From NCBI GenBank assembly GCA_002309475.1, contig DBXJ01000077.1:3471-63682 (forward strand): a DNA stretch of 60,212 nucleotides, given 5' to 3'. The notes beneath the pieces are model-generated. The model was given only the letters and a program-made list of their open reading frames with translations. It did no database searches and was not told the DNA's origin. Below, piece by piece: positions 7,927-54,247 of the stretch (its first letter is position 1; each line of letters starts with the position of its first letter). The DNA is from Bacteroidales bacterium UBA1215. Its GTDB lineage: Bacteria; Bacteroidota; Bacteroidia; Bacteroidales; WCHB1-69. A program made the position numbers and the translations under genes.

Positions 7927-7946
7927 TTTATCGAATTTTTGAAATG

Positions 7947-7954: not shown

Positions 7955-7959
7955 ACATA

Positions 7960-8162: not shown

Positions 8163-8651
8163 ATGAAACAAATAAAAAACAATTATAAACTTTTAAATAC
8201 AATAACAATGAAACTGAAATACATAATGCCTATGTTAGCAACGGTCGTCCTGATAGTGGCAGGATTAGTCCTTTTCGCAGGATGTGAAGAGGAAGAAAAT
8301 AAAGTAAAAGAGAAAAACTATATGGATATTCCTTTAGAACAATATCTAAAAGGAACATGGGTACTTGAGAAAGAAATTCCGACACTCAATTATGATTTTT
8401 TTCAAGATACGCTCATTTTTAATAATGGATACTTTGTTAGCAATTGTGAAACATCTGATCATATTCCCTATCAAACACAATATGTCTATTATCCCTATAA
8501 TGATACAGTTAGACAAAATGATACAACTTACTATACAAGATTATTCATTGAAAGATTAGGACCTGATGAAATACTTATTTACAATTATCATCCATGCTAT
8601 GATTATACTTGTGCAGTTAAAAATTCAGCGTTTAGCCGTATAAAAAATTAA
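8163..8651 (+). CDS. Hypothetical lipoprotein (AT-rich gene)
   Basis: 162-aa ORF. The more likely start is ATG 8208 (MKLKYIMPMLATVVLIVAGLVLFAGC, lipobox FAGC). The mature part is Tyr/Asn-rich and no family was recognised. Confidence 0.6.
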   Translation: MKQIKNNYKLLNTITMKLKYIMPMLATVVLIVAGLVLFAGCEEEENKVKEKNYMDIPLEQYLKGTWVLEKEIPTLNYDFFQDTLIFNNGYFVSNCETSDHIPYQTQYVYYPYNDTVRQNDTTYYTRLFIERLGPDEILIYNYHPCYDYTCAVKNSAFSRIKN

Positions 8652-8806
8652 GGTATGAAAAAATATAAAGCCACATTCAAGTCACAAATGCAAATTTGTT
8701 AAACAATTATTTTTTATAAAAGTAGAAAAAAATTTTTTCAATAGATTTTTTTAAGGAAAATTATCTTTTTGTCCGTCTTTATTTTCTAAATCTCAACAAA
8801 AAATGC

Positions 8807-8814
8807 TATCTTTG
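8807..8814 (+). promoter_or_regulatory. -7 box (TAtcTTTG) for alaS
   Basis: gctatctttgcaag, ~57 nt upstream of ATG 8872. Confidence 0.45.
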
Positions 8815-8871
8815 CAAGTTTTTATTCTTTTTCTCTAAAATAGAGAGATAATATAAAAAAATAAAGAAAAG

Positions 8872-11493
8872 ATGACAAATAAAGAAATAAGAAAAGCATT
8901 TTTAGATTTTTTTCGCTCTAAAGAACATCATATAGTTCCTTCAGCACCCATAGTGGTCAAAAACGACCCTACACTTATGTTTACCAATGCCGGCATGAAC
9001 CAGTTTAAAGATATCTTTTTAGGCAATCAGCCTGCCAAATATCTACGAGCTGCCGACAGCCAGAAATGTCTGCGGGTATCCGGCAAACACAACGATTTGG
9101 AAGAAGTCGGCCGCGACACCTACCACCACACTTTTTTTGAAATGTTGGGCAACTGGTCTTTTGCCGACTATTTCAAAAAAGAAGCGATAGAATGGGCATG
9201 GGAGTTTTTAACAGAAGTAGTAAAAATCGACAAAAACAATCTCTATGTTACCGTATTTGGCGGAGATGCAAACGACCACACCGAAAAAGATACGGAGGCA
9301 TATAATTTTTGGAAAAATATCATCAGCGAAGACAGAATTCTCTTCGGCAATAAAAAAGACAACTTTTGGGAAATGGGCGAACAAGGTCCTTGCGGTCCTT
9401 GCTCGGAAATTCATATAGACATCAGAAACGAGGAGGAAAAAAAGAAAATCTCCGGACGTGAATTAGTCAACAAAGACCATCCGCAAGTGATAGAAATATG
9501 GAATTTGGTATTTATACAATACAACCGTAATGCCAATGGACAATTGGAACTGTTGCCGAACAAATATGTCGATACCGGCATGGGTTTTGAACGATTGTGC
9601 ATGGTGTTGCAAGACAAACAATCCAACTACGAAACCGATATCTTCCAACCATTGATACAAGCCATTGCACAAGCCGCACACGTAAACTACGGCGACAATG
9701 CCGAAAAAGACATTGCCATGCGAGTGATTGCCGACCACCTGAGAGCCGTTTCGTTCGCCATAACAGACGGACAACTGCCTTCCAACACAGGTGCCGGCTA
9801 CGTAATCAGACGAATTCTCCGCAGAGCTGTCCGCTACGGCTTCACCTATCTGGGATTTGAACAACCTTTCATCTGCGAACTGTTGCCGACATTAGTCAAT
9901 CAAATGAAAGAACAATTCCCCGAAATTGAAAAACAAAAAGATGTCGCCTATAAAATCATCAAAGAAGAAGAACAGTCATTTTTGAGAACTTTGGCATCGG
10001 GCATACAAAAATTTGAGCAATATATTGCCTCTCACAAAAACGAAAAAGTCATCAACGGCGATTTTGCCTTTGAACTATTCGACACCTACGGCTTCCCTAT
10101 CGACCTCACCCAATTGATGGCCGAAGAAAAAAATATGACCGTTGACATGGTGGCATTCGAAAAAGGACTGGCAACACAAAAACAACGCTCCCGCTCGGTA
10201 GCACAAACCGAAACCGACGACTGGCAAATAGTCAACGATAGCAATGAAAATACCGATTTTGTCGGCTACGACACTTTGACAACAGAAACTAAAATATTGA
10301 AATACAGAAAGGTGACTGCAAAAAATCAATCTTTCTACCAACTAATTCTCAGCCAGACACCTTTCTATGCAGAAGGCGGTGGTCAAGTGGGCGACAAAGG
10401 AATATTAAAAAACAATACCGAAACCATACAAATTACCAACACAAAGAAAGAAAACAATTTATACATTCATTTGTGCAACCAATTGCCAAAAAATCTTTCG
10501 GCGACTTTCACTGCACAAGTAGATGCCGACAGCCGAAAATTAACGGAAAACAACCATAGTGCCACTCACCTGCTGCAATTCGCTTTGCGAAAAGTTTTAG
10601 GAACACACATTGAACAAAAAGGGTCGTTTGTCAATGCAGACAGACTACGTTTTGACTTCTCCCACTATGCCAAGATGAGCAAAGAAGAAATAAGGGAGAC
10701 AGAAAAAATTGTCAATCAACTGATTCGACAAAATATTCCATTAAACGAACACCGCAATGTTCCTATCCACGAGGCGGAAAAAATGGGAGCAATGATGTTG
10801 TTTGGAGAAAAATACGGCGACAAAGTACGTGTTATTCAATTTGGCGATTCTATTGAATTTTGCGGCGGCACCCACACAAGTGCCACAGGCAATATCGGCT
10901 TATTCCATATCATATCCGAATCTGCCATTGCCGCCGGCATCCGTCGTATTGAAGCTGTAACTGCCATCGGTGCAGAAAATATTGTCTATGCACAACAAGA
11001 TACTTTAGAAGAATTACGTAGCTTGTGCAACAATCCCGCCAACTTGACTTTGTCGGTCAAAACTTGTATAGAAGAAAACAACAAATTGAAAAAACAAGTG
11101 GAAGGCTTGCTCAACGAAAGAATCAACGCTTTGTGCCAGCAATTGCTAAAGCAAGTGGAAACTATCGGAGATATAAAGATAATCCGCTATTGCGGCACCG
11201 AAGATGCCGACTTTGTCAAAAAATTGACGGTAATGCTAAAACCTCATTTTGAACACGAAAAATTCGCCTTTGTAGGTGGTAGTGTCTTTAACGACAAGCC
11301 TACCTTAACTTTGTTTTTCACTACTCCGATGACAGAAGCAGGTTTCCATGCCGGCAACATCATCCGACAATCTGCCAAAGTGATAGAAGGCGGTGGCGGC
11401 GGTCAAAACTTTTTGGCAAGCGCCGGCGGCAAAAAAGCCGAAAACATCCGGCAAGCAATTGAAGAAACTGTTAAACTCATTACTGAAAAATAA
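8872..11493 (+). CDS. alaS: Alanine--tRNA ligase
   Basis: 873 aa. Class II AlaRS motifs FTNAGMNQFK and HHTFFEMLGNWSF, editing-domain HSATHLL, and a C-terminal GGGGGQ DHHA1-type tail. Confidence 0.95.
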   Translation: MTNKEIRKAFLDFFRSKEHHIVPSAPIVVKNDPTLMFTNAGMNQFKDIFLGNQPAKYLRAADSQKCLRVSGKHNDLEEVGRDTYHHTFFEMLGNWSFADYFKKEAIEWAWEFLTEVVKIDKNNLYVTVFGGDANDHTEKDTEAYNFWKNIISEDRILFGNKKDNFWEMGEQGPCGPCSEIHIDIRNEEEKKKISGRELVNKDHPQVIEIWNLVFIQYNRNANGQLELLPNKYVDTGMGFERLCMVLQDKQSNYETDIFQPLIQAIAQAAHVNYGDNAEKDIAMRVIADHLRAVSFAITDGQLPSNTGAGYVIRRILRRAVRYGFTYLGFEQPFICELLPTLVNQMKEQFPEIEKQKDVAYKIIKEEEQSFLRTLASGIQKFEQYIASHKNEKVINGDFAFELFDTYGFPIDLTQLMAEEKNMTVDMVAFEKGLATQKQRSRSVAQTETDDWQIVNDSNENTDFVGYDTLTTETKILKYRKVTAKNQSFYQLILSQTPFYAEGGGQVGDKGILKNNTETIQITNTKKENNLYIHLCNQLPKNLSATFTAQVDADSRKLTENNHSATHLLQFALRKVLGTHIEQKGSFVNADRLRFDFSHYAKMSKEEIRETEKIVNQLIRQNIPLNEHRNVPIHEAEKMGAMMLFGEKYGDKVRVIQFGDSIEFCGGTHTSATGNIGLFHIISESAIAAGIRRIEAVTAIGAENIVYAQQDTLEELRSLCNNPANLTLSVKTCIEENNKLKKQVEGLLNERINALCQQLLKQVETIGDIKIIRYCGTEDADFVKKLTVMLKPHFEHEKFAFVGGSVFNDKPTLTLFFTTPMTEAGFHAGNIIRQSAKVIEGGGGGQNFLASAGGKKAENIRQAIEETVKLITEK

Positions 11494-27100: not shown

Positions 27101-27557
27101 TAAAAGTGATATAAGGATCTGACAAATCGACCCAATAGCCCATTTTGCGGGTAAGGTCGTCCCACAAATCTTTGTATTGCATCACCTCGCTACGGCAAGC
27201 CTTGTTATAGTCGTCAACAGATATTTTTTTCCCGATATCTTCTTTGGTGATACCCAGTTTTTTCTCTACACCCAACTCTACCGGCAAGCCGTGTGTATCC
27301 CAGCCGGCTTTACGTTTTACATAGTATCCTTTTTGCGTTTTGTAACGGCAAAAAATATCTTTAATGGTACGAGCCATCACATGATGAATACCCGGCTGTC
27401 CGTTGGCAGAAGGAGGTCCTTCGTAGAAAACAAAATTAGGTTGTCCTTCCCGAATACGCATACTTTCCTCAAAAGTATGGTTTTCCTGCCATTGTGCCGA
27501 TATTTCCTTTGCTAACTGCGTTAAATCTAATTTCTCGTACTCTTTATATTTATTCAT
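24144..27557 (-). CDS. ileS: Isoleucine--tRNA ligase (long, type-2-like form)
   Basis: 1137 aa. PSANGQPGIHHV (HIGH region), the CP1 editing insert and KMSKRLGN (KMSKS). Confidence 0.95.
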   Translation of the reverse strand: MNKYKEYEKLDLTQLAKEISAQWQENHTFEESMRIREGQPNFVFYEGPPSANGQPGIHHVMARTIKDIFCRYKTQKGYYVKRKAGWDTHGLPVELGVEKKLGITKEDIGKKISVDDYNKACRSEVMQYKDLWDDLTRKMGYWVDLSDPYITFKNEYIETLWYLLSKIYEKGLLYKGYTIQPYSPAAGTGLSSHELNMPGCYRDVKDTTCVAQFHVKPAQKMAFPVEIDGKNTIPDNLYFIAWTTTPWTLPSNTALAVGPNIDYLLVKTFNPYSGMPVYLVLAEALLHAHFPEKNAELKMEDYHQGDKNIPYQVLATCKGKQLIGIEYEQLVPWVNPGEGAFRVIGGDYVTTEDGTGIVHIAPTFGADDDRVAKLAGVPPLFLIDKDGKRQPMVDKTGKFMLLSDMDADFVNKCVNVDAYKEYEGRFVKNAYDPNLTDKDTTLDVDLCVMLKLQNKVFKIEKHTHNYPHCWRTDKPILYYPLDSWFIRTTAVKDRMIALNKTIQWKPEATGSGRFGNWLENLVDWNLSRSRFWGTPLPIWRTEDGDEEICIGSVEQLRQEIDKAIKAGFMTENPYQSTNYDDFDLHRPYIDNVFLVSPSGKKMTRETDLVDVWFDSGAMPYAQYHYPFNSIKDSFPADFIAEGVDQTRGWFFTLHAIATMIDDTVSYKTVISNGLVLDKNGNKMSKRLGNAVNPFTTLEQYGPDATRWYMITNAQPWDNLKFDIDGIDEVRRKFFGTLYNTYGFFALYANIDGFAYKEADIAIQDRPEIDRWILSELNTLVKTVDSSFADYEPTKAGRAIQVFVDECLSNWYVRLCRRRFWKGDYSNDKISAYQTLYTCLETLAQLIAPIAPFFADRLFNDLNQVSGRYAANSVHLVDFPKVQEAYIDKSLEERMQLARQISSMVLSLRKRNNLRVRQPLAKIVIPAHSDHFIEQVSKVKHLILSEVNVKEIEFLSADNDVLVKTIKPNFKTLGPKYGKIMKSIATRVASFSQKEIAEIELNGEYHVEIEGQDVVLTTADVEIFTQDIPGWVVANENSLTVALDITVTTELQEEGLAREIVNRIQNYRKDNHFDVMDKIVVTISHADALQGVIARFTNYICSETLATELTMVPQIVDQDKFHVELIENLEVDMLIRKA

Positions 27558-27600
27558 TGCTAACTGAATATGTATTGTGTTTACAAAATTTTCAAAATTG

Positions 27601-27608
27601 CAAAGATA
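27601..27608 (-). promoter_or_regulatory. -7 box (TAtcTTTG, minus) for ileS
   Basis: Plus strand caaagata, ~44 nt upstream of ATG 27557. Confidence 0.45.
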
Positions 27609-27631
27609 ACACTTTTTTTTGGAAAAAATGC

Positions 27632-27763
27632 TTTTTTTTATTGATTATATAGATTCTACATAGATTCAACAAGCAATTTTTATGGTTTTTTTTTCAAAAA
27701 AAAATTTTTCATTATAAATCTGTTTTATATAATTTTTTTTTGTATATTTGCGAATTGAAAATT
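27632..27763 (+). promoter_or_regulatory. Repeated promoter-upstream module, copy B (contains -7 box TAtaTTTG at 27743-27750)
   Basis: See copy A at 7960-8084. Copy B carries an extra 11-nt tandem duplication (atagattc tac atagattc). Confidence 0.7.
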
Positions 27764-27871
27764 GATACATTTTTTTAATTTGATAGTTGTGAATGCAAGC
27801 ATGGCTGTCATTTACTGAAACGGACTAAACAAATTGAATAAAAAATTAAATTATTAACATAAATTTTAGCT

Positions 27872-28135
27872 ATGAAAAGAATTTTGATAGTAGCAGCAGT
27901 AGCTGCATGGGTAGCAGGCGTGGCCTTGACAGCTTGCAATACAAACAAAACAGCCGAAGAGACAAGCTCTAATGTCAACGGAATATGCGGTCATAGACCA
28001 CAAGACGTACATATCTATATTGAAGATGCAGACAGCGGAGTTGCCAATTTTACCGACAAAACCACAAATGAAACATGGAAAGGGTCGTTTGTAAAGGTTG
28101 ACAGCTTAACATGGGTTATACACTGTGACCAATAA
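27872..28135 (+). CDS. Small (87-aa) hypothetical lipoprotein
   Basis: Signal peptide plus lipobox LTAC, with a terminator hairpin 29 nt downstream. No family recognised. Confidence 0.55.
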   Translation: MKRILIVAAVAAWVAGVALTACNTNKTAEETSSNVNGICGHRPQDVHIYIEDADSGVANFTDKTTNETWKGSFVKVDSLTWVIHCDQ

Positions 28136-28163
28136 GGTTAACCCTATCTTATAGAAAAAAATA

Positions 28164-28195
28164 ACAGCAATATCTTAGTAAATATTGCTGTTTTT
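28164..28195 (+). terminator. Rho-independent terminator after the 87-aa lipoprotein gene
   Basis: ACAGCAATATcttagtaaATATTGCTGTtttt: a 10-bp stem plus a T-run. Confidence 0.65.
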
Positions 28196-28243
28196 ACTAT
28201 ACATACAAGAAAAGGATTGATTTTACAGAATAAATAAAATGAT

Positions 28244-29905
28244 ATGAAAAAGTATTTAATTTCCGTTTTATTAGTTCTTGGCAGTGCTCTTGCCATAGGA
28301 CAGCAACCCGCTTCTTTTAAGGTATGGAATTATACCATAGATTCCTTACCTGATGAACGGACCATGATGTTTGAATATTTTTCAAGAGTACAACATGATA
28401 TGCCTTTTTACACTTTTTTAGATATAGAACCCAAAGCAAGGCAGATAGGAGATACGCTATTCTATATTATTAAAGAAATGGCTGTCATATATGTTTACAA
28501 TACAATCTCCTATCAGGTAAGAGAAATACCCATGAAAGATAAAATGTACAATGGATTGATAGAATCCGTATATTATCATAATCATGATTCCATTTTCTTT
28601 TTTTTTGATCAAAGAAGAGTTCAAAATCCTCCTGAATTTATAACAGATAGAGGAAAAAAACTCTATGATATCATGCTGATGAACGGACAAGGAGATATTA
28701 TAGGGACCTATATGGTAAATCAACCATTTAAACAATATAGCAGAGATGTCAAAAACAATGTGTTGGGACTAAGTTCTTATGGAATTTGTTGTTCCCGTTT
28801 AAAAAATGATGAATTGTTAATTAAATTTTGGACAATACCTGAGTATTCTAATAAAGAATACGCAGCCTTTGACCCTCCTATAGCAGCCTTATACAATTTA
28901 AAAACAGGTAATTGTCGTATGCTCAATATTCATTATCCATCGGAATATTTTGGTAAAAAGTTTGGAAATAAAGATGATATTTATATAAATGATACTTATT
29001 GGATAATGGAAGGGAAACACAATGATTTGTTTATCTTTTTTGATTTTATACCCACCATTTATCACTATGATTTCCAAAAAGACACTATGACAGAATGGAA
29101 TTGTAGGTATGACAAGATGTTTATCACTGCCGATACCGCAAACATGGAATACGGGAAAATGGCATTAAAATACGATATTCCCCGCTGGTGCAGTGAGGAA
29201 CAATGCTATTTTAGAGAAATCTGGATAGTAGAATATAAAGATTATAAGCATGGAACATTAGTTACAGAAATTTTGGATTCCAACTTTAATCATTTGGCTT
29301 ATGCTATTGGAAAAGAATATAATAAACTTCCTTATACTATTGTAGGAATACCGGTTGTCAAATGCTCAAAAGACCAGCAATGGCATCAAATTCATTTCAA
29401 CAGAAAGCTCAAAAAGATTAAAATGTCAGATTTTGAAAAAAATATGGTAAAAAAGCCTGTTCCGCTAAAAGATACCATAGGAGTGGCAGAATATTTCCAC
29501 CGTTTGAACATTCCTGATAAAAGGTCGGTGGTGTTGATAGTAAACATGAAATATCCGTGCAGCACTTGTTATGATTTTATTTTCTACACTATGCAATATA
29601 ATAGGGAATCTTTTGAAAATAATCAGATTTATTGTATCAGCTATGATCCCAATGGAACTACTCTCATGGATTCTTATTTGGAAAAATATGGTTTGACAGA
29701 TTGTAAAAATATCATAAAAGACACCACCATGTTGGGCAGTGTCTATGGAGGATTCAATTATTGTTTTGGCAATTATCCGTATATATTGCTACAATATATG
29801 GATGACGGCAAATACACATTGGAGTTTCCGGAATTTCAAACACTGCATACAATGTGGGGACAACTGATAAAAAACCAAATAGAATGGAAACGTAAGGAAG
29901 AATAG
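28244..29905 (+). CDS. Secreted hypothetical protein with a C-terminal thioredoxin-like CxxC module
   Basis: 553 aa, very AT-rich gene. Signal peptide ...ALAIGQQ, a long Tyr/Phe/Asn-rich N-terminal region, and near the C-terminus VVLIVNMKYPCSTCYDF, a beta-strand plus CxxC as in TlpA/redoxin folds. Confidence 0.55.
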   Translation: MKKYLISVLLVLGSALAIGQQPASFKVWNYTIDSLPDERTMMFEYFSRVQHDMPFYTFLDIEPKARQIGDTLFYIIKEMAVIYVYNTISYQVREIPMKDKMYNGLIESVYYHNHDSIFFFFDQRRVQNPPEFITDRGKKLYDIMLMNGQGDIIGTYMVNQPFKQYSRDVKNNVLGLSSYGICCSRLKNDELLIKFWTIPEYSNKEYAAFDPPIAALYNLKTGNCRMLNIHYPSEYFGKKFGNKDDIYINDTYWIMEGKHNDLFIFFDFIPTIYHYDFQKDTMTEWNCRYDKMFITADTANMEYGKMALKYDIPRWCSEEQCYFREIWIVEYKDYKHGTLVTEILDSNFNHLAYAIGKEYNKLPYTIVGIPVVKCSKDQQWHQIHFNRKLKKIKMSDFEKNMVKKPVPLKDTIGVAEYFHRLNIPDKRSVVLIVNMKYPCSTCYDFIFYTMQYNRESFENNQIYCISYDPNGTTLMDSYLEKYGLTDCKNIIKDTTMLGSVYGGFNYCFGNYPYILLQYMDDGKYTLEFPEFQTLHTMWGQLIKNQIEWKRKEE

Positions 29906-29941
29906 TCTTTCTTAAAAACATACTTTTTCATAAACAAATAC

Positions 29942-29969
29942 AGGGCAACACTGTTGCCCTTTTGTTTTT
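29942..29969. terminator. Hairpin plus T-run between convergent genes
   Basis: AGGGCAACacTGTTGCCCTtttgttttt. Confidence 0.6.
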
Positions 29970-30002
29970 ATATAAGCCTATAAATAGTCTTATTCTGGAT
30001 TT

Positions 30003-30794
30003 TTACAGTTGGAAATTAATCGGTAAGCAGCGGAACAAAACAGGCACGGCTTTGCCCTTATGTTTTCCGGGTATCCATTTAGGCATGGCTTTTACCACTC
30101 GGACAGCTTCTTTGTCTAAATCTTCATCTACGGAATTTGCCACTTTTACGTTGGTGATGCTCCCATCGGCCTCCACTACAAAACTAACCACTACTTTACC
30201 TTCTACTTTTCTTTCAAAAGCACTTTTAGGATATACCAAATTTTCGTTCAAATATTGAATAAAAGCTTTTTTCCCGCCCGGAAATTCCGGTAACTGTTCC
30301 ACTTCTACAAATACTCTCTCATTTTCTTCTTGGATAGTATTGTTGCTTGACGAATCCGTTGTCGTAGAACTATCCCCAAACTCAAAACTTATAGGCACTC
30401 TATAATATTCACGTATAGCCTTGCCGTCTTGTTCTGCCGGTATCCACTTAGGCATGTTTTTTATCACTCTGACAACTTCTTCGTCCAAATCCTTATAAAG
30501 GGAACGAATCACTTCTACATTGGATATGCTGCCATCGGTTTCCACAACAAATTGAACCAACACTTTACCTTTAAATCTTCTTTCTTGAATAGTAGGAGGA
30601 TATACCAAATTTTCGCTCAAATATTGCATCAAAGCTTCATCTCCACCCGGAAATTTTGGAGGGATGACCGGATCAACAAACACTTCTTGAGTGGTATCTT
30701 TATCGGGAGAGTTGTTCAATGGGTTATTGTTTTGTGCATTTGCCAAAGAAACACACAACAAACAAATAATCATGTATAGCATAGTTTTTTTCAT
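30003..30794 (-). CDS. Secreted protein with two tandem TonB C-terminal (TonB_C) domains
   Basis: I start at the internal Met (ATG 30794) because MKKTMLYMIICLLCVSLANAQ is a signal peptide and the -7 box lies inside the longer track ORF. There are two units of P-x-FPGG...YPxxxxExxxxGKVxVxFVVExDGSIxNVxV...MPKWIPxxxxGKA. Confidence 0.7.
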   Translation of the reverse strand: MKKTMLYMIICLLCVSLANAQNNNPLNNSPDKDTTQEVFVDPVIPPKFPGGDEALMQYLSENLVYPPTIQERRFKGKVLVQFVVETDGSISNVEVIRSLYKDLDEEVVRVIKNMPKWIPAEQDGKAIREYYRVPISFEFGDSSTTTDSSSNNTIQEENERVFVEVEQLPEFPGGKKAFIQYLNENLVYPKSAFERKVEGKVVVSFVVEADGSITNVKVANSVDEDLDKEAVRVVKAMPKWIPGKHKGKAVPVLFRCLPINFQL

Positions 30795-30831
30795 AAAGCA
30801 TAAAAGTTTAAAATACAAAAAGAAATTTTTG

Positions 30832-30839
30832 CAAAGATA
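30832..30839 (-). promoter_or_regulatory. -7 box (TAtcTTTG, minus) for the tandem-TonB_C gene
   Basis: Plus strand caaagata, ~38 nt upstream of ATG 30794. Confidence 0.45.
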
Positions 30840-30932
30840 GTAAAAATAATATGCATGATGGCAAAAAATCATATTTTTTTTTAGAAATACAAAAAAAATA
30901 CATAATCTATTGCCTATTTCAATTAAAAATAG

Positions 30933-30940
30933 TATCTTTG
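30933..30940 (+). promoter_or_regulatory. -7 box (TAtcTTTG) for relA/spoT
   Basis: agtatctttgtt, ~78 nt upstream of ATG 31018. Confidence 0.35.
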
Positions 30941-31017
30941 TTATTTGCAAATTTTCATTTTATAAAATTTGCATTATTTTGGTAATCAATAAGATAGAAA
31001 ATAAATCGTGCTAAATT

Positions 31018-46046: not shown

Positions 46047-46826
46047 ATGATAGACAACGTTAGAGCAAAGAAAAATTTAGGACAACATTTTTTGGTTGAC
46101 ACATCCATTGCCCACAATATTGTCAATAGTTTGTCGGGCGACTACTTGGATGTTTTGGAAGTGGGTCCCGGCATGGGTGCCTTGACAAGCATTTTATTGG
46201 AAAACGATGTCTATCGCCTGCATGTGGTGGAAATTGACCAAGAGTCAGTTGCCTACTTGGAGCAACACCTGCCGCAACTCCGCGGCAGAATTTGGCAAGA
46301 AAACTTTTTGAAAATGGATTTTGACAAAATTTTTTCGCAGCCATTTTCCATCATCGGCAATTTTCCCTACAATATCTCCTCACAAATTCTCTTCAAAATT
46401 CTTGATGAGAAAGACAAAGTGCCGGAAGTGGTCGGCATGTTTCAAAAAGAAGTGGCAGAACGCATTGCCTCTGCCGCCGGGAATAAATCGTATGGAATTT
46501 TAAGTGTACTTCTGCAGGCATTCTACGATATTGAATATTTATTCACTGTCAACGAAAATGCTTTCAATCCGCCTCCCAAAGTAAAATCGGCAGTGATACG
46601 ACTCAAACGCAATCAAGTGCAACATCTCGACTGCGATGAAAAAATATTTAAACAAATTGTCAAAACCGCCTTCAATCAAAGAAGAAAAATGCTACGCAAT
46701 TCTTTGAAAAACATTTGTTTTGAAGAAGACTTTACAAAAAAAAGAATCTTCGACCAAAGACCGGAGACTCTTTCTGTTGCTGATTTTATCTATATTACGC
46801 AGCACGTAACAGACCCATCCTTATAA
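46047..46826 (+). CDS. rsmA: 16S rRNA (adenine1518/1519-N6)-dimethyltransferase
   Basis: 259 aa. LGQHFL, VLEVGPGMGALT and GNFPYNISS. Confidence 0.9.
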   Translation: MIDNVRAKKNLGQHFLVDTSIAHNIVNSLSGDYLDVLEVGPGMGALTSILLENDVYRLHVVEIDQESVAYLEQHLPQLRGRIWQENFLKMDFDKIFSQPFSIIGNFPYNISSQILFKILDEKDKVPEVVGMFQKEVAERIASAAGNKSYGILSVLLQAFYDIEYLFTVNENAFNPPPKVKSAVIRLKRNQVQHLDCDEKIFKQIVKTAFNQRRKMLRNSLKNICFEEDFTKKRIFDQRPETLSVADFIYITQHVTDPSL

Positions 46827-46830
46827 TATC

Positions 46831-47367
46831 TTATTCGCTAATGGAATAATCTTGGCATTCTATATAATAGAATGTTAATGGTTGACCGCCATTTTGTGCT
46901 ATTTGTTCTCTATAGGCTTTTATTTGTTGCAATTGCGGATTTTCTTCCGAATTGATATCCACACCTTGCTGTTCGGTAACACAAATATGTCCTTCTTGCG
47001 TGGTGTCTTGCAAAACTTGTTGTTCCCACTGATTTAAATAATCTTCATCCACTACCAACATCACTTTTACAATTCCGTTAATAGTGTAATGTTTGTCAAT
47101 GGTTTCTTTGTCAAAAGGTGCATTGCCGTCTTTGGTGAAAACTGTTATGGTTTCCTCAGAAGAGTCACTGCCTAACATTAATTTTCTGCCACTTACCGCA
47201 CAAATATGTTTGGCTACTCCTTGCACATTAATGGTGGAATCTACTAATTGTCCCATGATGGATGACAATTCGTCCACGGTGTAAATTTTCGGCTCATTTT
47301 CTTTATTGGCACATGCTGCCAACAAACCAAGAGCTACTACTGCAATAAATACTTTAAAATTCTTCAT
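46831..47367 (-). CDS. Hypothetical lipoprotein
   Basis: I start at the internal Met (MKNFKVFIAVVALGLLAACANK, lipobox LAAC). It lies immediately downstream of nadB on the same strand. Confidence 0.55.
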   Translation of the reverse strand: MKNFKVFIAVVALGLLAACANKENEPKIYTVDELSSIMGQLVDSTINVQGVAKHICAVSGRKLMLGSDSSEETITVFTKDGNAPFDKETIDKHYTINGIVKVMLVVDEDYLNQWEQQVLQDTTQEGHICVTEQQGVDINSEENPQLQQIKAYREQIAQNGGQPLTFYYIECQDYSISE

Positions 47368-47377
47368 GTGTTTGTTT

Positions 47378-48943
47378 TTATTCGTTATTTTTTGGTGGAT
47401 AATCAATAGAATAATGCAAGCCTAAACTTTCTTTTCGTTTCATTGCCTCGCGAATAATCAAATAAGCGGTACAAATCATGTTTCTCAATTCACAAATCGG
47501 TTTAGTGACTTCAGAATGCTGATATAAATCTTCTGTTTCTCTATAAATAATATTCAATCTATCAAAAGCCCGTTGCAAGCGATGGTCGGAACGGACAATT
47601 CCTACATAATAACTCATCATGGCTTGCAATTCACGGACACTTTGTGTTACTAAAATCATTTCTTCGTTGGAAACTGTCCCTTCTGCATTCCAATCTTGAA
47701 TGCCTTCTTGGAAATCAATGTTTGGCAACAAGTTTGAAGAATGTTCGCATGCACGATGAGAAAATACCAATGCCTCCAACAAGGAATTTGATGCCAAACG
47801 ATTGGCACCATGCAAACCCGTAGAAGAGCATTCTCCCAAAGCATATAAATGATTGATGGAAGTTTTGCCCCACTTGTCCACCCAAATGCCTCCACAGGAA
47901 TAATGTGCTGCAGGAACCACCGGTATCATATCTTTTGTAGCATCAATACCTATTGACAAACATTTGCTATAGATATTGGGGAAATGATTGAAAAACACCG
48001 ATTTTTCCAGATGACGGGCATCTAAAAACACGTGACTTTCACCACTGATTTTTATTTCGTGGTCAACAGCTCTTGACACAATATCTCTCGGTGCCAAAGA
48101 ACCTCTTTCGTCATATTTTTTCATAAAAGCATTGCCATGCCAGTCTTTCAATTCTGCACCGGCACCTCTCAACGCCTCGGTGATTAAAAATGCGGGTCTC
48201 TCGTTGGGATTGTACAAAGTGGTGGGATGAAATTGAACAAATTCCATACCTCTTACTGCACCTTTTGCACGATGTACCATGGCCACGCCATCACCGGTGG
48301 CAACACGCGGATTGGTGGTATTGCCATAAATATTGCCAATTCCGCCTGTAGCAACAACGGTAATTTTTGCCAAAAATGTCTCTACCTTTTTGCTATGAGG
48401 ATTGTAAACATAAGCCCCATAGCAACAAATATCGGACGAATGCTTGGTAACTTTTACTCCCAAATGATGCTGGGTGATTAGTTCCACGGCAAAATAATTT
48501 TCCAATATCTCTATATTGGCATTTTCTTTTGCCTTTTGATATAATTTTTGTTCAATTTCTAATCCTGTTTCATCTTTATGGTGCAAAACTCTGAATTCTG
48601 AGTGCCCTCCTTCTCGGGCCAAATCAAATTTTCCCGTTCGATTTTTGTCAAAATCCACTCCCCACTCTACCAATTCTTTCACCCTTGCAGTGGATTCGGT
48701 AATGGTAATTCTCACTATTTCCGGATCTGACAACTCACAACCCGCTATCATGGTATCTTTGATATGCTTTGCGTAGGTATCGGGGTCGTACATAACCGCT
48801 GCGATACCGCCTTGAGCGTATTTTGTGGAAGTTTCTTCTGCATTGTCTTTTGCTATCATGCAAACTTTCCCGAATTTGCTTGCCTTCAATGCAAAACTCA
48901 ACCCAGCTACGCCTGTTCCTATAACCAAATAATCTACTTTCAT
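47378..48943 (-). CDS. nadB: L-aspartate oxidase
   Basis: 521 aa. DYLVIGTGVAGL FAD motif, ATGGIG, HYSCGG, GANRLASNSLLE. Confidence 0.9.
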   Translation of the reverse strand: MKVDYLVIGTGVAGLSFALKASKFGKVCMIAKDNAEETSTKYAQGGIAAVMYDPDTYAKHIKDTMIAGCELSDPEIVRITITESTARVKELVEWGVDFDKNRTGKFDLAREGGHSEFRVLHHKDETGLEIEQKLYQKAKENANIEILENYFAVELITQHHLGVKVTKHSSDICCYGAYVYNPHSKKVETFLAKITVVATGGIGNIYGNTTNPRVATGDGVAMVHRAKGAVRGMEFVQFHPTTLYNPNERPAFLITEALRGAGAELKDWHGNAFMKKYDERGSLAPRDIVSRAVDHEIKISGESHVFLDARHLEKSVFFNHFPNIYSKCLSIGIDATKDMIPVVPAAHYSCGGIWVDKWGKTSINHLYALGECSSTGLHGANRLASNSLLEALVFSHRACEHSSNLLPNIDFQEGIQDWNAEGTVSNEEMILVTQSVRELQAMMSYYVGIVRSDHRLQRAFDRLNIIYRETEDLYQHSEVTKPICELRNMICTAYLIIREAMKRKESLGLHYSIDYPPKNNE

Positions 48944-49003
48944 TTTCTTATCTTAACTGCATTTTCAATCAAAAATGCAAATTTTGTTAAACATTTCAAA
49001 CTG

Positions 49004-49011
49004 CAAAGGTA
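49004..49011 (-). promoter_or_regulatory. -7 box (TAccTTTG, minus) for nadB
   Basis: Plus strand caaaggta, ~60 nt upstream of ATG 48943. Confidence 0.4.
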
Positions 49012-49108
49012 GTAAAAAAATACGAATATCCGCTCATTTTTCTTCCATGCCGACTCGTCGTTTGACTGATTTTCCGTCCTACCTTCCTTTTGTTAACAAT
49101 AAAAATGA

Positions 49109-49116
49109 TATTTTTG
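49109..49116 (+). promoter_or_regulatory. -7 box (TAttTTTG) for the MATE gene; a second identical box lies at 49131-49138
   Basis: gatatttttgcaaattagttatcatatttttgcATG. The second box abuts ATG 49140, so either box 1 is used or the true start is Met16 (49185). Confidence 0.35.
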
Positions 49117-49139
49117 CAAATTAGTTATCATATTTTTGC

Positions 49140-50522
49140 ATGCAAACACACGACAACATCAAAAGAGATGAAAAATATCTCTTGATGACACAAACTGCAA
49201 TAAAGCCGTTAGTACTGAGAATGGCATTGCCAACCATTATCAGCATGATGGTGACAGCCTTGTACAATGTTGTAGATGCGGCATTTATCGGGCATTTGAG
49301 CACAGAAGCCACTGCCGGTGTAGGAGTTTCGTTTGCATACATGACTTTTATACAAGCCTTCGGATTTTATTTCGGGCACGGTTCAGGCAACTATATGTCA
49401 AGAGTTCTCGGTGCCCGACAATACCAAAACGCTGAACAGATGGCGGCTACAGGTTTTGGTTCTTCTTTTCTCATCGGACTCATGGCAAGCATATTGGGAT
49501 TGTGCTTTTTGCCGGCACTTTCGCAACTTTTGGGTGCCACACCGGATATAAAAGACTATTCTAACCAATATTTGACATACATTTTGATTGCCACTCCTTT
49601 TATGATGTCTTCTTTGACACTCAACAACCAACTCAGACTACAAGGGAGTGCACAATATGCTATGATAGGATTGGCATCCGGTGCCATTCTAAATATGATT
49701 TTAGACCCCATTTTCATTTTTGGCTTGCATTGGGGTGTTCGCGGGGCAGCTATTGCAACTGCTTGCAGTCAATTGTTTGCATGGTTGTTGTTACTGCGTG
49801 GCACACGATTAGACGGCAATGTTCACCTGCAATTCAAAAATTTCCAACCTACTTGGCATGCCTACAAGGAAATCACTCGTGGCGGTTTGCCGTCCTTGTG
49901 CCGACAAGGATTGATATGTTTTTCAACCATTTGCCTCAATCGTGCGGCTGCCTTCTATGCACAAACCGGCTTAGAAGCCTCTACCATTGCCGCCTTTGCC
50001 ATTGTTTCCCGTATTATGATGTTCGCCTTTGCCATTATCTTAGGTCTTGGACAAGGCTTCCAACCCGTATGCGGGTTCAACTATGGAGCTAAATTGTTTC
50101 ACAGGGTAAGAGCATCTTACTTGTTTACCATGACATTTTCCACCCTGCTCTTGTTGCTCATGAGTATATTCGGCTATATATTTGCTCCACAATTGATAGC
50201 CATATTTAGAGATGCAGATGCTGATTTAATAATTATCGGCACAAAGGTCCTGCGGTGGCAGTGTGCAGTATTTATTCTCAACGGACTAACCACCCCTACC
50301 AATATGTTATTGCAAACCACCGGCAAAGTGATACCGGCCACCTTTTTGTCTGCCTGCCGGCAAGGAATCTTTTTCCTGCTGGTGATATGCACCATTCCCC
50401 CACTATATGGTCTCAACGGACTGATTGCCACACAAGCAATTGCTGACATACTCACCTTCCTGACAGCAACACCCTTTGCTATTATTGCCGCCAAACGATT
50501 GAAAAACAATAAAGAATTATAA
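49140..50522 (+). CDS. MATE-family efflux transporter
   Basis: 460 aa, about 12 predicted hydrophobic segments, with N-terminal LALPTIISMMVTALYNVVDAAFIGH typical of MATE. Confidence 0.85.
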   Translation: MQTHDNIKRDEKYLLMTQTAIKPLVLRMALPTIISMMVTALYNVVDAAFIGHLSTEATAGVGVSFAYMTFIQAFGFYFGHGSGNYMSRVLGARQYQNAEQMAATGFGSSFLIGLMASILGLCFLPALSQLLGATPDIKDYSNQYLTYILIATPFMMSSLTLNNQLRLQGSAQYAMIGLASGAILNMILDPIFIFGLHWGVRGAAIATACSQLFAWLLLLRGTRLDGNVHLQFKNFQPTWHAYKEITRGGLPSLCRQGLICFSTICLNRAAAFYAQTGLEASTIAAFAIVSRIMMFAFAIILGLGQGFQPVCGFNYGAKLFHRVRASYLFTMTFSTLLLLLMSIFGYIFAPQLIAIFRDADADLIIIGTKVLRWQCAVFILNGLTTPTNMLLQTTGKVIPATFLSACRQGIFFLLVICTIPPLYGLNGLIATQAIADILTFLTATPFAIIAAKRLKNNKEL

Positions 50523-50659
50523 GACAAAATAACACTTCATTATTTGGACGTCCATGAGATAGAATAAAATTTAACTTCCTACATTTTTTTTAAGTTACAC
50601 AATTTCCCACTCAATCCTGCGTTATAAAAGTATATTAACTTTTTAAAATATATTCAAAT

Positions 50660-51124
50660 ATGAAAACTGTAAAAATAACAATTGAAGGCACATTAAAAAT
50701 CGTGTGCTACTGTACAGAAAAGGAAGATTTTTGGGACAATTATTATATGGCTTTTGGTTTTGGTAAAATTGATTCCATAAGTGCTACTATTGATGGCAAA
50801 CGCAAGGATATCCAAAATGAAATAGGAGAAGATACAATTGTTCGCAACCTGCTTCGCTCCCAATTTAATTCTCGCGAACAGGGTCTACCTGTAGAGGTCG
50901 GTGAAGACGAAGATCCCTCCGCTATAGTAAATTATGAAATTCAATTGAAAGATAATGAGGAGTTTGATCCTTCTAAACTCCACCTCCAAAAGTCCGTTAA
51001 GGAGTTTCCGCAATATCCGGTTTGGATTGAGGCCACATCAATTCTATACAAGCGTAAAAAGATTAATACGACATCACACCTTGGTGACTATGAAGGAGTT
51101 GAGCCGGAGTTTGAAGTCGATTAA
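50660..51124 (+). CDS. Hypothetical protein (island gene A), no signal peptide
   Basis: 154-aa ORF in an AT-rich island, followed by a strong terminator. Its C-terminal pattern is shared with island gene D (see findings). Confidence 0.6.
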   Translation: MKTVKITIEGTLKIVCYCTEKEDFWDNYYMAFGFGKIDSISATIDGKRKDIQNEIGEDTIVRNLLRSQFNSREQGLPVEVGEDEDPSAIVNYEIQLKDNEEFDPSKLHLQKSVKEFPQYPVWIEATSILYKRKKINTTSHLGDYEGVEPEFEVD

Positions 51125-51154
51125 ACTACTCTGAAAACACATCTTCATTAATAA

Positions 51155-51192
51155 ATAGGAGGTGAGTTAAATAATCACCTCCTATTTTTTTT
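51155..51192 (+). terminator. Rho-independent terminator of island gene A
   Basis: ATAGGAGGTGAgttaaataaTCACCTCCTATttttttt: an 11-bp perfect stem plus a T-run. Confidence 0.8.
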
Positions 51193-51354
51193 GTCAATTT
51201 CCCTATGACAACCAATATCCGATTTCATAGAAAACATAATTTGTTCCCTTTAAAATATACTAGTTTGTAAATAAGTTATCCAAGCGAGATGGATTGTACG
51301 AAATTGACACCGGATTTTTGGTATCATGAAAAAATTTTCCTATAGTAATTAATA

Positions 51355-52002
51355 CTATCTATCTAATTCTTTCATCCATTCTTCCAACTTATTTTCAATA
51401 TCACCTTTTTTCAACAAAGGTCTCTTACCTATTTTATTTCCTACAAATTTGTCAAAATCATACAAAAATCTATCTAAATCCTCAAATTGAACTCTATAAC
51501 CATGATAGCCATATTTCTCTATTTCATACAATTTATTGAGATAATCTATATAGATATCTATTAGTGTTCCATTATCTTTAACATTTTTGTAATTATCTAC
51601 AGGTTCAAAATCATAAGCAGCTCTAAAAGCTCGTTCATCTATAATTTGATACACACTCGGATTTAAAAACCGTAGATAAGTAGATGCCATAGGAAGCCCG
51701 ACACCTCCTGTTGAAAGAAGATCGGTTAACACATCTCTGGTCTTAGCCTCATCTAATTTTCTAAGTGATTTTAACTTATTGAGATTGTCCAAAGTTTCGT
51801 CCGTTATCTCCGAAGGGCGGTTTGTTTTCCATTCCCTTATTTGGTGAATATTTTCTCTCGTCAGGTCTTTTCCACGAAGACCATCTAACAAATTCGTTAT
51901 TTCTGGCAAATATCCAAATGGTACACTAATTTCTTTCCCGTCTTTCTCTATGCTATAGGAGGGACCACTCTTTTTTTGCGTTTGATTTAAATTTCGCTTC
52001 AT
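51355..52002 (-). CDS. Helix-hairpin-helix (HhH-GPD/OGG-fold-like) protein, putative DNA-glycosylase-like (island gene B2)
   Basis: 215 aa. LLSTGGVGLPMASTYLRFLNPSVYQIIDERAF: G100-V-G102 then Asp122, the same +20 spacing as GVG118 to D138 in E. coli endonuclease III. Position +2 is Pro, not Lys. There is no C-terminal Cys cluster. Confidence 0.5.
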   Translation of the reverse strand: MKRNLNQTQKKSGPSYSIEKDGKEISVPFGYLPEITNLLDGLRGKDLTRENIHQIREWKTNRPSEITDETLDNLNKLKSLRKLDEAKTRDVLTDLLSTGGVGLPMASTYLRFLNPSVYQIIDERAFRAAYDFEPVDNYKNVKDNGTLIDIYIDYLNKLYEIEKYGYHGYRVQFEDLDRFLYDFDKFVGNKIGKRPLLKKGDIENKLEEWMKELDR

Positions 52003-52080
52003 TTTTTAAAATTATTAATGGTAAATATATGCTTATTATTTGATTATTAAACTTTTATCTATTTTAGAGATGTCCGTATG

Positions 52081-53061
52081 TTAATCCCAAAAGTCATCAC
52101 GATATTCACCTTTATAGTATAGGTCTATCGCATAGCCATGTTGCAGACTTTCGATAAAATCTTTAGAAGATATATTGTGTGGTGATATCTTGACTGCTCC
52201 ACCTAATCTAAATTCAACTTCCTTCAAGGTGCTTGGAAATATAATCTTCTGCAATGCTGTACAACCTATAAATGCTTTTGAATCTATATGTTTCAAAGAC
52301 TCATCAAAAGAGATAGTTGTCAAAGATGTGCAATCCTGAAAAGCTTCGGAACGAATTTGAGTGATATGTTGAAAATCAACTTCTTCCAATTCCACATCTT
52401 CCGAAAAAGCATCTGAACGCAGAATATAACCACTATTCATTCCAATTATTTTTTCCTCTTTGTTGATTTTTTTCAACTTTACAATGTGATCTGTATTTTG
52501 CAATGGCATATTATCGACTTCTTTACGTTCAAAAATACTAGAAATTGATTTTGGCAACCAATCATGTTCGGAAAAACCATTATCAATTTCGCCACTCAAA
52601 AAGAGCCATTCTTTGACACTTATTTGCTCAAAAGTCTCAGGATGCTGTTTAAGAAATTTGACAACTCTTGCGTTTAACTCTTTGTGTTCCTCCAGAAATA
52701 CCGATGTTAATTCCGAATAATCCCGTCTGGGAACAACTATCCATGTCTGCCTTGTACCATATGAAAATTCCCGATCTGTAAGAGAAAACGAAAAAGGACA
52801 TGTTCGTTCACATACCATACCATCAATGGTATAATCCTTTAAATGAGTGTCAACTGTATCTTTATCAGCATGATAAGTAACACAATAATAACAGCGAATA
52901 CCATCAACAATGACATACTCATCCATATCGGCCATATCAATATAAATGGTATTGGCATCTTTACAATATACGTTGGCTGGAATTCGAGGTAGATAAAAAG
53001 CTCGTTTGCCAAACATGATTTTTATATACTTTTCCAACATGAGTGTATGTTTTTCTTTCAT
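52081..53061 (-). CDS. Cytoplasmic protein with C-terminal BspA-type leucine-rich repeats (island gene B1)
   Basis: 326 aa with no signal peptide. Residues ~212-285 carry about three LRR_5-like units (...IRSEAFQDCTSLTTISFDESLKHIDSKAFIGCTALQKIIFPSTLKEV). The N-terminal 200 aa are unassigned. Confidence 0.55.
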   Translation of the reverse strand: MKEKHTLMLEKYIKIMFGKRAFYLPRIPANVYCKDANTIYIDMADMDEYVIVDGIRCYYCVTYHADKDTVDTHLKDYTIDGMVCERTCPFSFSLTDREFSYGTRQTWIVVPRRDYSELTSVFLEEHKELNARVVKFLKQHPETFEQISVKEWLFLSGEIDNGFSEHDWLPKSISSIFERKEVDNMPLQNTDHIVKLKKINKEEKIIGMNSGYILRSDAFSEDVELEEVDFQHITQIRSEAFQDCTSLTTISFDESLKHIDSKAFIGCTALQKIIFPSTLKEVEFRLGGAVKISPHNISSKDFIESLQHGYAIDLYYKGEYRDDFWD

Positions 53062-53151
53062 AATGTTATTAACGATTCCCTACACATCGTGAGGTTTTTA
53101 TAGTAACTAAAGTTGTATTAAAACTACCAATTTTGGCTTTATTTTATTTTG

Positions 53152-53159
53152 CAAAAATA
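53152..53159 (-). promoter_or_regulatory. -7 box (TAttTTTG, minus) for the LRR/HhH gene pair
   Basis: Plus strand caaaaata, ~90 nt upstream of ATG 53061. Confidence 0.35.
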
Positions 53160-53433
53160 ATCAAATTTCTAATACCAATTTCTTTTTTCTATAATTTTTT
53201 TGTTGCCAATATATATATGATTATCAATTAGTTGTATTAAAAAAAATCTTTACATTGCTTTTTGTTCTTATAGTATTCCTTCTTTATTATTTGTACACTT
53301 TTTGGAAATTTTCTGCTTCTTCCATTTAATGATTAACGAATCTGACGAATAGTTTCCCAACAATATTGTTTTTTTTCTACCACATATATGTTATCACCCC
53401 AAAATAAACATCCGTCATCGCTTATTTCCGGTT

Positions 53434-53991
53434 TTATATTTTTTTATCATAAATAAAATTATGTACGCTATTCCAACTATCCGAATCCAACAACCCTAAG
53501 ACAGCATCATCTGAATATGGTAGGAAAAAAAACTTATCAAGATGGAATTTGTCATCCATTATTACGAAGGTCTGATACCTTCTTTTTTCAATGGTTTCTA
53601 TTAAAATATAACGACCTTCCGGAATGGACACTATAGGTTTGCTTAATTCATTCCCTAAAGCTATCCATTTTTTATTCTCATAAAAATCTTCCACTCCATA
53701 GAATTCGCACAATTCCATGCTTTCTTCCTCCTTATTATAAACATAATTTCCGTCTTCGTCTTTTACACTAATAAAGAAATCTATATCACACTCTTCCGGA
53801 AATGCCTGATCCATTATATATGCTATATTATCTGCCGTGTCTCTTAGTTTATATGCTTTTTTCTCCGTAATAGTGTTAATTTTTTCATTTGAAGGAATGG
53901 GAATAAGACAAATTTCACGGGCACCTTTAGTATATACTTCTACAGTAAACTTTGAAAGACCTTTACTATCTTTTTTACTTTGTTTTATCAT
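53434..53991 (-). CDS. Hypothetical protein (island gene D), no signal peptide
   Basis: 185-aa ORF. It ends ...NFIYDKKI* inside an A7 run, and the -1 frame stays open for a further 35 codons (see findings). Confidence 0.55.
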   Translation of the reverse strand: MIKQSKKDSKGLSKFTVEVYTKGAREICLIPIPSNEKINTITEKKAYKLRDTADNIAYIMDQAFPEECDIDFFISVKDEDGNYVYNKEEESMELCEFYGVEDFYENKKWIALGNELSKPIVSIPEGRYILIETIEKRRYQTFVIMDDKFHLDKFFFLPYSDDAVLGLLDSDSWNSVHNFIYDKKI

Positions 53992-54123
53992 TTTGAATTC
54001 ATTTAAAATTTTCGCCTACTCTCTTATGGATTTTCAACTTCTTCCGTTTATGTTATTCTACTTTTTATCAATTCTATATGTTAAAAACTAATTCTATTGC
54101 CATTAATAGTATTAATGATGTTA

Positions 54124-54131
54124 CAAATATA
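54124..54131 (-). promoter_or_regulatory. -7 box (TAtaTTTG, minus) upstream of island gene D
   Basis: Plus strand caaatata, ~130 nt upstream of ATG 53991. Confidence 0.3.
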
Positions 54132-54209
54132 TAACAAAAAAACATAAAAAATTAAATAAAGACATTTTTTACTCCAACATTGAACTTATACTTGTTATAA
54201 AAAAAATGA

Positions 54210-54234
54210 AATTATTGATTTTATATCAATAATT
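54210..54234. promoter_or_regulatory. Perfect 10-bp inverted repeat overlapping the -33 region of the ftsE promoter (operator candidate)
   Basis: AATTATTGATtttatATCAATAATT, ending 5 nt before the -7 box. Confidence 0.3.
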
Positions 54235-54239
54235 TTTCG

Positions 54240-54247
54240 TACCTTTG
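54240..54247 (+). promoter_or_regulatory. -7 box (TAccTTTG) for ftsE
   Basis: cgtacctttgcaag. This places the TTG start used by the ORF track inside the promoter, so ATG 54266 is preferred. Confidence 0.45.

Follow-up and report, generated by a model that had tools for sequence, protein, structure and literature searches.

Dag proteins are diverse helix-hairpin-helix (HhH) glycosylases, invisible to annotation, that are carried in Vibrio integron cassettes and defend against phages with 7-deazaguanine DNA; they are single-gene proteins of about 200 amino acids (aa), found in horizontally acquired cassettes or variable islands of phyla that include Bacteroidota (bioRxiv 10.1101/2025.10.29.685425). 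In a second kind of locus, rAID-1 of Bacteroidales, small unannotated genes form low-GC clusters in which the intergenic regions are long and bear motifs, together with a XerD-family recombinase (bioRxiv 10.1101/471110). Here, we analyzed a 60,212-nt stretch of contig DBXJ01000077.1 of Bacteroidales bacterium UBA1215 (the window, meaning this whole stretch), in which a short AT-rich segment, the islet, lies between a MATE exporter gene and ftsE and encodes four proteins, A154, B215, C326 and D185. On balance, we consider the islet to be probably a rare mosaic allele of independently promoted accessory cassettes and not one four-gene machine. What is new in it are undescribed families and a possible module based on leucine-rich repeats (LRR), set within a familiar kind of locus.

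The borders of the islet were defined against a conspecific set of 19 contigs, retrieved by exact-sequence look-up of the flanking MATE and glycosyltransferase proteins. BLASTN homology with these contigs, 98–99% identical in the flanks, stops at 50532 and restarts at 54175 (at 54047 for one alternative allele). The first-pass annotation, made from the sequence alone, had placed an AT-rich island with open reading frames (ORFs) of 154, 215, 326 and 185 aa at 50523–54240; the block is real, all four ORFs exist as described, and the comparison sharpens the limits to those given in Table 1. The islet has 31.4% G+C against 38.3% in the rest of the window (37.9% for the whole window) and is the lowest stretch of its size: only 0.35% of sliding windows of islet size are equally low, and the window-wide minimum falls within it. 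The proposed codon-usage check gave a deviant G+C at third codon positions for B215, C326 and D185 (0.26–0.27; z −2.2 to −2.4 relative to 41 other window genes) and an ordinary composition for A154 (38.1% GC). The long intergenic gaps that had been reported (137, 230, 78 and 372 nt, and a last one of 253 or 274 nt according to the ftsE start chosen) indeed stand out from a tightly packed remainder, with a median gap of 46 nt in the window. The same holds for the reported lack of mobility features: the tRNA scan found no tRNA in the islet region, domain-library searches of the proteins found no integrase or transposase domain in or beside it, and neither direct or inverted repeats nor a target-site duplication are present at the junctions 50532/50533 and 54174/54175. 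An integrative mobile element, a prophage and an integron cassette were rejected on the same grounds, i.e., no integrase or transposase, no tRNA target and no flanking repeats.

At least three alleles occupy the site between 50532 and 54175. The common allele, 535 nt long, contains a single 149-aa ORF with a hydrophobic C-terminus directly after the MATE gene (L091 8574–9023); it was found in 10 of 10 listed loci with the identical glycosylase-neighbour glycosyltransferase, and in several MATE contigs besides. The 149-aa ORF is missing from the window allele, and a frameshifted form of 113 aa occurs in one contig (L086 2918–3259). In a further allele (L081 8414–12403), the 149-aa ORF is retained and is joined by a radical-SAM/SPASM gene (519 aa), two 224-aa genes, and a 76-aa ORF or long leader, a cargo that may be a peptide-maturation or defence cassette. 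Expression of this cargo starts from the 128-nt promoter segment that also drives D185, within which a −7 box (TATATTTG, 54124–54131, minus strand) is directed into the cargo. One of the 224-aa proteins is recorded as PF27257 HI_0787_N; it shares an NP..Y.I.D motif with B215, and its candidacy as a B215 relative was rejected at an hhalign probability of 3.8%. The window allele itself is also present in L084 (100% identical over 46421–53166) and L089. Independent assemblies from these other samples thus contain the left junction and three of the genes, so that the islet is not an assembly artefact.

Since there is no duplication at the junctions, the islet is a replacement allele, that is, a swap at a cargo hot spot by allelic replacement without integrase, and the exchange most likely proceeded by homologous recombination via the conserved flanks, replacing the 535-nt segment. 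The proposed check, whether the MATE gene and ftsE are adjacent in close relatives, showed the islet to be absent from most conspecifics, where the 535-nt segment with its 149-aa ORF is found instead. The conserved flanks, the three or more contents at one site, the foreign composition and the lack of an integrase are features shared with defence islands and hot spots, and the neighbours of islet homologues include McrBC, GmrSD, Hachiman, Gabija and restriction-modification (RM) systems. The islet differs from such islands in being tiny (3.6 kb) and in containing no recognised defence system, its defensive role being putative. As for the left flank, a scan of a genome collection with the MATE protein gave no close relative (best 59% identity), mostly Firmicutes and no synteny. 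The nearest proteins to this exporter (49140–50522) in species-representative genomes are mostly from Clostridia, at 40–47% identity, with one Bacteroidales metagenome-assembled genome at 59%; therefore, the left flank may itself be an older acquisition. T9SS-tail (type IX secretion system), TonB-receptor and LpxD genes in the locus neighbourhood mark the host as belonging to Bacteroidota, and the sample labels suggest that the host species comes from ruminant or gut metagenomes.

The islet had initially been interpreted as a horizontally acquired conflict or defence-type cassette. Its foreign composition, its strain variability and its phage, mobile-element and defence-island content agree with this; the notion of the four genes as one cassette or system is not supported, and a defensive function is putative. 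A single undescribed defence system moving as a unit would account for genes that share an islet, a low G+C and absence from most conspecifics, and for the intact recurrence of the window allele in two other assemblies. However, the neighbourhood data have already largely refuted it: among 90 B215, 10 CN (the N-terminal domain of C326) and 8 A154 loci, the four families co-occur only in the window allele, D185 has no homologues, and B215 relatives have no recurrent partner. Moreover, the genes form at least three transcription units on two strands, and the proposed search with PADLOC-DB 2.0 found no system component family at E (expectation value) ≤ 1 for any of the four proteins. We regard a single travelling system as very improbable.

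Although the foursome never recurs outside the window allele, the neighbourhood check did reveal that A154-like, CN and LRR_5 parts recur together or fused. They occur as a CN-LRR fusion with A154 in the window, as three neighbouring genes in L188–191, and as LRR-A154 fusions in the proteins P0070 and P0072. This is evidence of the Rosetta-stone type, from which the three parts are probably functionally associated. In C326, the match to Pfam LRR_5 (PF13306) has an E of 4.7e-14, and the CN domain has 15 homologues of 177–200 aa. Since every one of these stands alone, C326 is a fusion. The CN domain is modelled with a predicted local distance difference test (pLDDT) of about 80–90; it has no sequence match in the PDB, no fold match in the PDB or BFVD, and no relatives in IMG/VR viral contigs. 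Its relatives were found in three further contexts. In L188–191, PDDEXK_4 (twice), ATPase_2, two signal-less LRR_5 genes and McrB/McrC are found, and a 156-aa ORF directly downstream of a 399-aa LRR_5 gene, convergent with the CN gene, belongs to the A154 family (hmmsearch E 1.5e-8; hhalign 94%). L194–197 contain three LRR_5 genes, an AAA ATPase, GmrSD, AAA_15/21 and a DNA ligase, and L192–193 a WYL regulator, Vsr, an AHH-toxin protein and WXG100/FtsK genes. Of the four CN contexts, three have flanking LRR_5 genes, which are rare in the controls (2 of 80 MATE loci; none elsewhere in the 60-kb window).

Proteins with BspA-type LRR usually function as adhesins. In C326, no signal peptide was seen by inspection of the N-terminus (MKEKHTLMLEKYIKIMFGKRAF), with no dedicated predictor used, and no Por_Secre_tail (T9SS) domain was found with Pfam. 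A role as BspA-type surface adhesin was rejected, as LRR_5 is present without an export signal; the LRR protein of L104, in comparison, has both signal peptide and tail. C326 further departs from the BspA type in having about three repeats, no anchor and an unrelated N-terminal fusion, and the cytoplasmic LRR_5 genes related to it reside in restriction-rich islands. As side observations in the CN islands, an acidic 92-aa ORF is found in nearly identical copies (L188 5670–5948 and 10177–10455, L189 8001–8279, L194 6877–7155), directly upstream of a CN or McrB-like gene tagged with the leader described below in L188 and L189, and just downstream of the CN gene in L194. A family of 72–96-aa ORFs also recurs there, and neither of the two has a Pfam match.

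A154 is a small acidic cytoplasmic protein with 20 remote relatives of 150–180 aa (full HMMER search), of which P0070 and P0072 carry the LRR_5 repeats at the N-terminus. Of the relatives, one is located in an integrase/VapE element with another LRR_5 gene nearby, one is adjacent to a large serine recombinase, and one follows the tail and lysin genes of a phage. Judged from these sequence relationships, A154 is a prophage/mobile-element accessory family, often fused or adjacent to LRR_5.

C326 is preceded by a conserved 5' leader whose 22-nt core (53073–53094) ends 11 nt upstream of the start codon. Near-identical copies (AACCTCRCGATGTRYAGGNNAYCG) are located 8–14 nt upstream of the ATG in L188, L189, L192 and L194–L197, where the tagged genes comprise all the CN genes, signal-less LRR_5 genes, McrB-like and GmrSD genes, and uncharacterised ones. 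In 18 IMG/VR contigs (L198–L215), the leader precedes diverse small genes, with arrays of three to five in L205 and L210; neither the conspecific core DNA nor the searched B215 and A154 loci contain it. Given that canonical −7 boxes sit 35–110 nt upstream of it, the leader lies within the transcript. The reading frame of the leader-internal ATG relative to the gene is not conserved, no match was obtained in Rfam or in the literature searched, and a proposed 5-bp hairpin shows weak covariation. Folding of the C326 and D185 leaders gave a stability no greater than that of shuffles. By its distribution, the leader appears to be an undescribed sequence motif that places C326 in the mobile, defence and phage gene pool.

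These distributions also bear on whether the islet could be the remnant of a decayed prophage or mobile element, its genes being phage morons, anti-defence genes or host-takeover genes that do not protect the host. The relatives of A154 at prophage ends, after lysin or beside integrases and serine recombinases, would be expected in that case, as would a C326 leader that is common in IMG/VR viral contigs and sometimes arrayed before small genes. Yet structural, replication and integrase genes, as well as att repeats, are all lacking from the islet, and its junctions are clean. CN relatives were not found in viral contigs and lie among restriction systems on long chromosomal contigs, and neither A154 nor B215 nor D185 has a match in GenBank phages. 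A prophage remnant is, thus, unlikely in our view.

The −7 consensus of Bacteroidetes, known from Bacteroides promoters, is TAnnTTTG, and the boxes reported here were located with it; a sigma-70 promoter scan is uninformative for Bacteroidota. Since C326 and B215 are only 78 nt apart, and the scans found neither a TAnnTTTG box nor a terminator-like site in this spacer, the two are probably co-transcribed. The likely terminator between the convergent A154 and B215 was missed by the terminator scan, which skips loops of more than 8 nt. D185 has its own promoter box. A search of 5.8 billion proteins returned one match for it, a copy with 98% identity; Pfam, PADLOC, NCBIfam, PHROG and GenBank phages gave none, and a profile comparison gave no relation to the A154 family. 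The RNA motif ahead of D185 was identified at 35.6 bits, which is exactly the gathering score of RF02914 and so a borderline pass (E 2e-6 for the window, 1.4e-7 locally). From the name of the family, a DUF805b RNA is expected to precede a gene of the DUF805 family; D185, which matched no Pfam family, does not belong to DUF805.

Small, acidic, cytoplasmic and unannotated proteins such as A154, CN and D185 might instead be orphan immunity proteins against interbacterial toxins, which would make the islet a cluster of acquired interbacterial defence (AID-like) genes. The low G+C and long gaps recall the rAID-1 clusters (bioRxiv 10.1101/471110), whose small unannotated genes and motif-bearing intergenic regions also have their counterparts in the islet, and one CN relative is found near an AHH-toxin gene and WXG100/FtsK-type secretion genes. 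Membership in rAID-1 was nonetheless rejected: low G+C is the one defining property that the islet shares, and it has no XerD-family recombinase in or beside it, genes on both strands, a single leader copy and no homology to known immunity proteins. In addition, no Pfam immunity family was matched, the remaining CN contexts consist of islands of restriction and nuclease genes, and a fusion with LRR repeats is atypical of immunity proteins. An orphan immunity function is, on this evidence, quite improbable.

B215, the putative glycosylase, belongs to a large family. A word-indexed search gave 39 relatives, all unnamed Bacteroidales proteins, and a metagenome scan gave at least 298 from soils, sediments, marine and gut samples; B215 had no match in NCBIfam or in GenBank phages. 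The family alignment contains an invariant glycine (G100 in GVGLPMAS(T)YLRF) and, 22 residues on, an invariant aspartate (D122 in QIID.RA), the other invariant residues being W58-K59, R62, D177-R178 and D184. In the AlphaFold2 model (pLDDT 90.8), helix 85–96, a hairpin and helix 103–113 are followed by D122 just ahead of helix 123–129, an arrangement that agrees with the HhH-GPD signature of a Gly-rich hairpin and an invariant Asp about 20 residues later at a helix N-terminus. With the B215 profile, the top matches among PDB sequences are exclusively Ogg2-type 8-oxoguanine glycosylases (9o02 at E 0.004, 3fhf, 3knt and 3fhg; E 0.004–0.15), which align precisely over the helix-hairpin-helix and the Asp, and Pfam Ogg-HhH matches 3 of 24 family members weakly (best E 0.002). 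The best Foldseek matches of the model are dominated by AlkA, Ogg, MagIII, EndoIII and MutY, all weak (E 0.3–5; template modelling (TM) score 0.25–0.34).

The enzymes that B215 matches best, by profile and by fold, are those of the Ogg2/AGOG and AlkA/MagIII types, and the Ogg2 hairpin GLGMKEAS corresponds to GVGLPMAS in B215, with the same spacing to the Asp (IIDRH versus IIDER). B215 differs from them in the very low degree of similarity (E 0.004–0.15, TM ≤0.34), in an extra N-terminal beta-hairpin, in being strain-variable and not core, and in lacking the catalytic Lys. The Lys position of bifunctional enzymes (GxGxK) is Pro104 in all members of the B215 family, which sets them outside the bifunctional class; as Pro stands in place of the catalytic Lys, a monofunctional mechanism is predicted, if B215 is catalytic. 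With Dag, compared by description only, B215 has in common a similar size, a solitary habit, an HhH motif with a conserved Asp, and conserved Lys, Trp and Asp residues. Dag1 is, however, reported as bifunctional with a Lys-Asp pair, where B215 has Pro at that Lys, and B215 is not in an integron and has a predicted activity and a predicted target modification only. On these similarities, we regard B215 as a very divergent HhH-GPD-like protein and as a candidate defence glycosylase. The likeliest of its possible roles would be to attack base-modified phage DNA, as the Dag glycosylases do, a tentative proposal by analogy, which we would at present sooner doubt than assert.

No recurrent operon partner of B215 was found when 80 metagenomic loci were clustered and 35 non-redundant contexts were searched with Pfam and PADLOC. 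Within these 35 contexts, GajA (Gabija), AbiEi (AbiE), ParE and OLD each appear twice, the genes being otherwise mixed. The one homologue with an annotation is encoded on a megaplasmid of Methylobacter, where a RecB-like nuclease and Hachiman HamAB flank it and a type I RM system is close by. In two further contexts from Bacteroidales, LRR_5 genes, secreted or tail-/membrane-anchored, come next downstream of the B215 relative. Three strains, represented by L104, L105 and L106 (about 6600–8900), have an identical B215 homologue, and the adjacent secreted BspA-type LRR gene is called at 727, 468 and 523 aa, differences that suggest repeat-number variation, disruption or assembly collapse. In L107 (5241–5871), an MNT/HepT toxin-antitoxin pair (NTP_transf_2 + HepT-like) is located directly upstream of the B215 homologue, and a gene for a tail-anchored LRR_5 protein comes after that homologue.

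With a glycosylase-like motif in B215 and a BspA-type LRR in C326, the islet could also be thought to contain ordinary lineage-specific housekeeping genes, a repair glycosylase and a surface adhesin. This is already contradicted by the presence/absence polymorphism, as the genes are missing from most conspecific genomes; in addition, their composition is foreign, C326 has no signal peptide or T9SS tail, and B215 has no NCBIfam match. We give the housekeeping explanation hardly any credence.

Returning to the mosaic allele, the following scenario sets predicted functions on the observed borders, variability, composition, family distributions, fusions and leader. A rare allele would have arrived at the hot spot between the MATE exporter gene and ftsE via flank recombination, displacing the 535-nt segment, with a cargo drawn from the phage, mobile-element and defence-island gene pool. 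Its first unit would be formed by C326 and B215, probably on one transcript; C326 would be a cytoplasmic protein in which the CN domain is joined to a short BspA-type LRR, and B215, as a monofunctional enzyme, would flip a non-canonical base out of the DNA and excise it. The second unit would be A154, which, going by the fusions, probably acts together with CN and LRR through protein-protein recognition, and the third D185, an orphan with its own promoter and DUF805b-like leader. It would go further to see in the A154-like, CN and cytoplasmic LRR_5 proteins an undescribed modular conflict system of Bacteroidales, controlled through the leader, as type IV restriction genes and many genes of Bacteroidales phages would also be, and here transcriptionally coupled to an HhH glycosylase-like effector; this we hold to be rather unlikely.

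Several observations weigh against this picture. The assignment of B215 as a glycosylase is weak, with sequence matches at E 0.004 or worse and Foldseek matches at E ≥0.3 and TM 0.25–0.34, and many of its relatives have housekeeping neighbours. The LRR_5 genes beside B215 relatives are possibly incidental, because they are of the secreted or anchored types. The link between CN, A154 and LRR comes from few independent contexts (four for CN, about nine for A154); LRR_5 and A154-like genes are both lacking from L192, one of the CN contexts, and the fusion in L194 is weakly A154-like. The co-transcription of C326 and B215 is deduced solely from missing signals, and, as stated, PADLOC models match none of the four genes.

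Table 1. Features of the islet and its transcription signals (positions in the window).
Feature	Position	Strand	Basis
Strain-specific replacement segment (islet), 3,642 nt, 31.4% G+C	50533..54174	.	BLASTN borders, composition, repeat-free junctions
A154 ORF, 154 aa	50660-51124	+	Program ORF list
Hairpin and T-run between convergent A154 and B215, likely terminator	51150..51190	.	Inverted repeat I11: 16-nt arms, 94% complementary, 9-nt loop, TTTTTT
B215 ORF, 215 aa	51355-52002	-	Program ORF list
C326 ORF, 326 aa: CN domain, aa 1-~180 (beta-rich, then helical), and about 3 BspA-type LRR_5 repeats, aa 215-282	52081..53061	-	Program ORF list; Pfam, homologue search, model
Conserved 5' leader AACCTCACGATGTGTAGGGAATCG, ends 3 nt upstream of C326 start codon	53065..53096	-	Single copy in window
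Bacteroidetes-type -7 box TATTTTTG for C326, probably for a C326-B215 transcript	53152..53159	-	TAnnTTTG regex scan
D185 ORF, 185 aa: ORFan, acidic cytoplasmic protein	53434..53991	-	Program ORF list; homologue search
DUF805b-like RNA motif in D185 5' untranslated region, 22 nt upstream of ATG	54013..54047	-	Rfam RF02914
Promoter-bearing segment common to window and L081 alleles (~85% identity, 128 nt), absent from majority allele	54047..54174	-	BLASTN to L081, junction sequences, box scan

Other low-GC or ORF-poor spots are present elsewhere in the window: a 162-aa ORF with 29.0% G+C and a weak T4SS_pilin match (8163–8651), a region at 27250–31000 with a 553-aa ORF (28244–29905; 32.4% G+C, no Pfam match) preceded by a 686-nt gap, and an ORF-poor gap of 1,193 nt (4870–6062).

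With its three natural alleles, the MATE-ftsE locus provides a clean system in which to study how cargo is exchanged at a hot spot without an integrase. To our knowledge, translation-initiation signals are poorly understood in Bacteroidota, and the leader, common to restriction, LRR and phage genes, could mark a regulatory circuit shared by mobile and defence genes. The link between CN, LRR_5 and A154 offers a testable hypothesis for many cytoplasmic BspA-type LRR proteins of gut bacteria. Finally, gut Bacteroidales phages often modify their DNA, and if B215 is a defence glycosylase, base-excision immunity would extend to an abundant and widespread family and to gut Bacteroidales.

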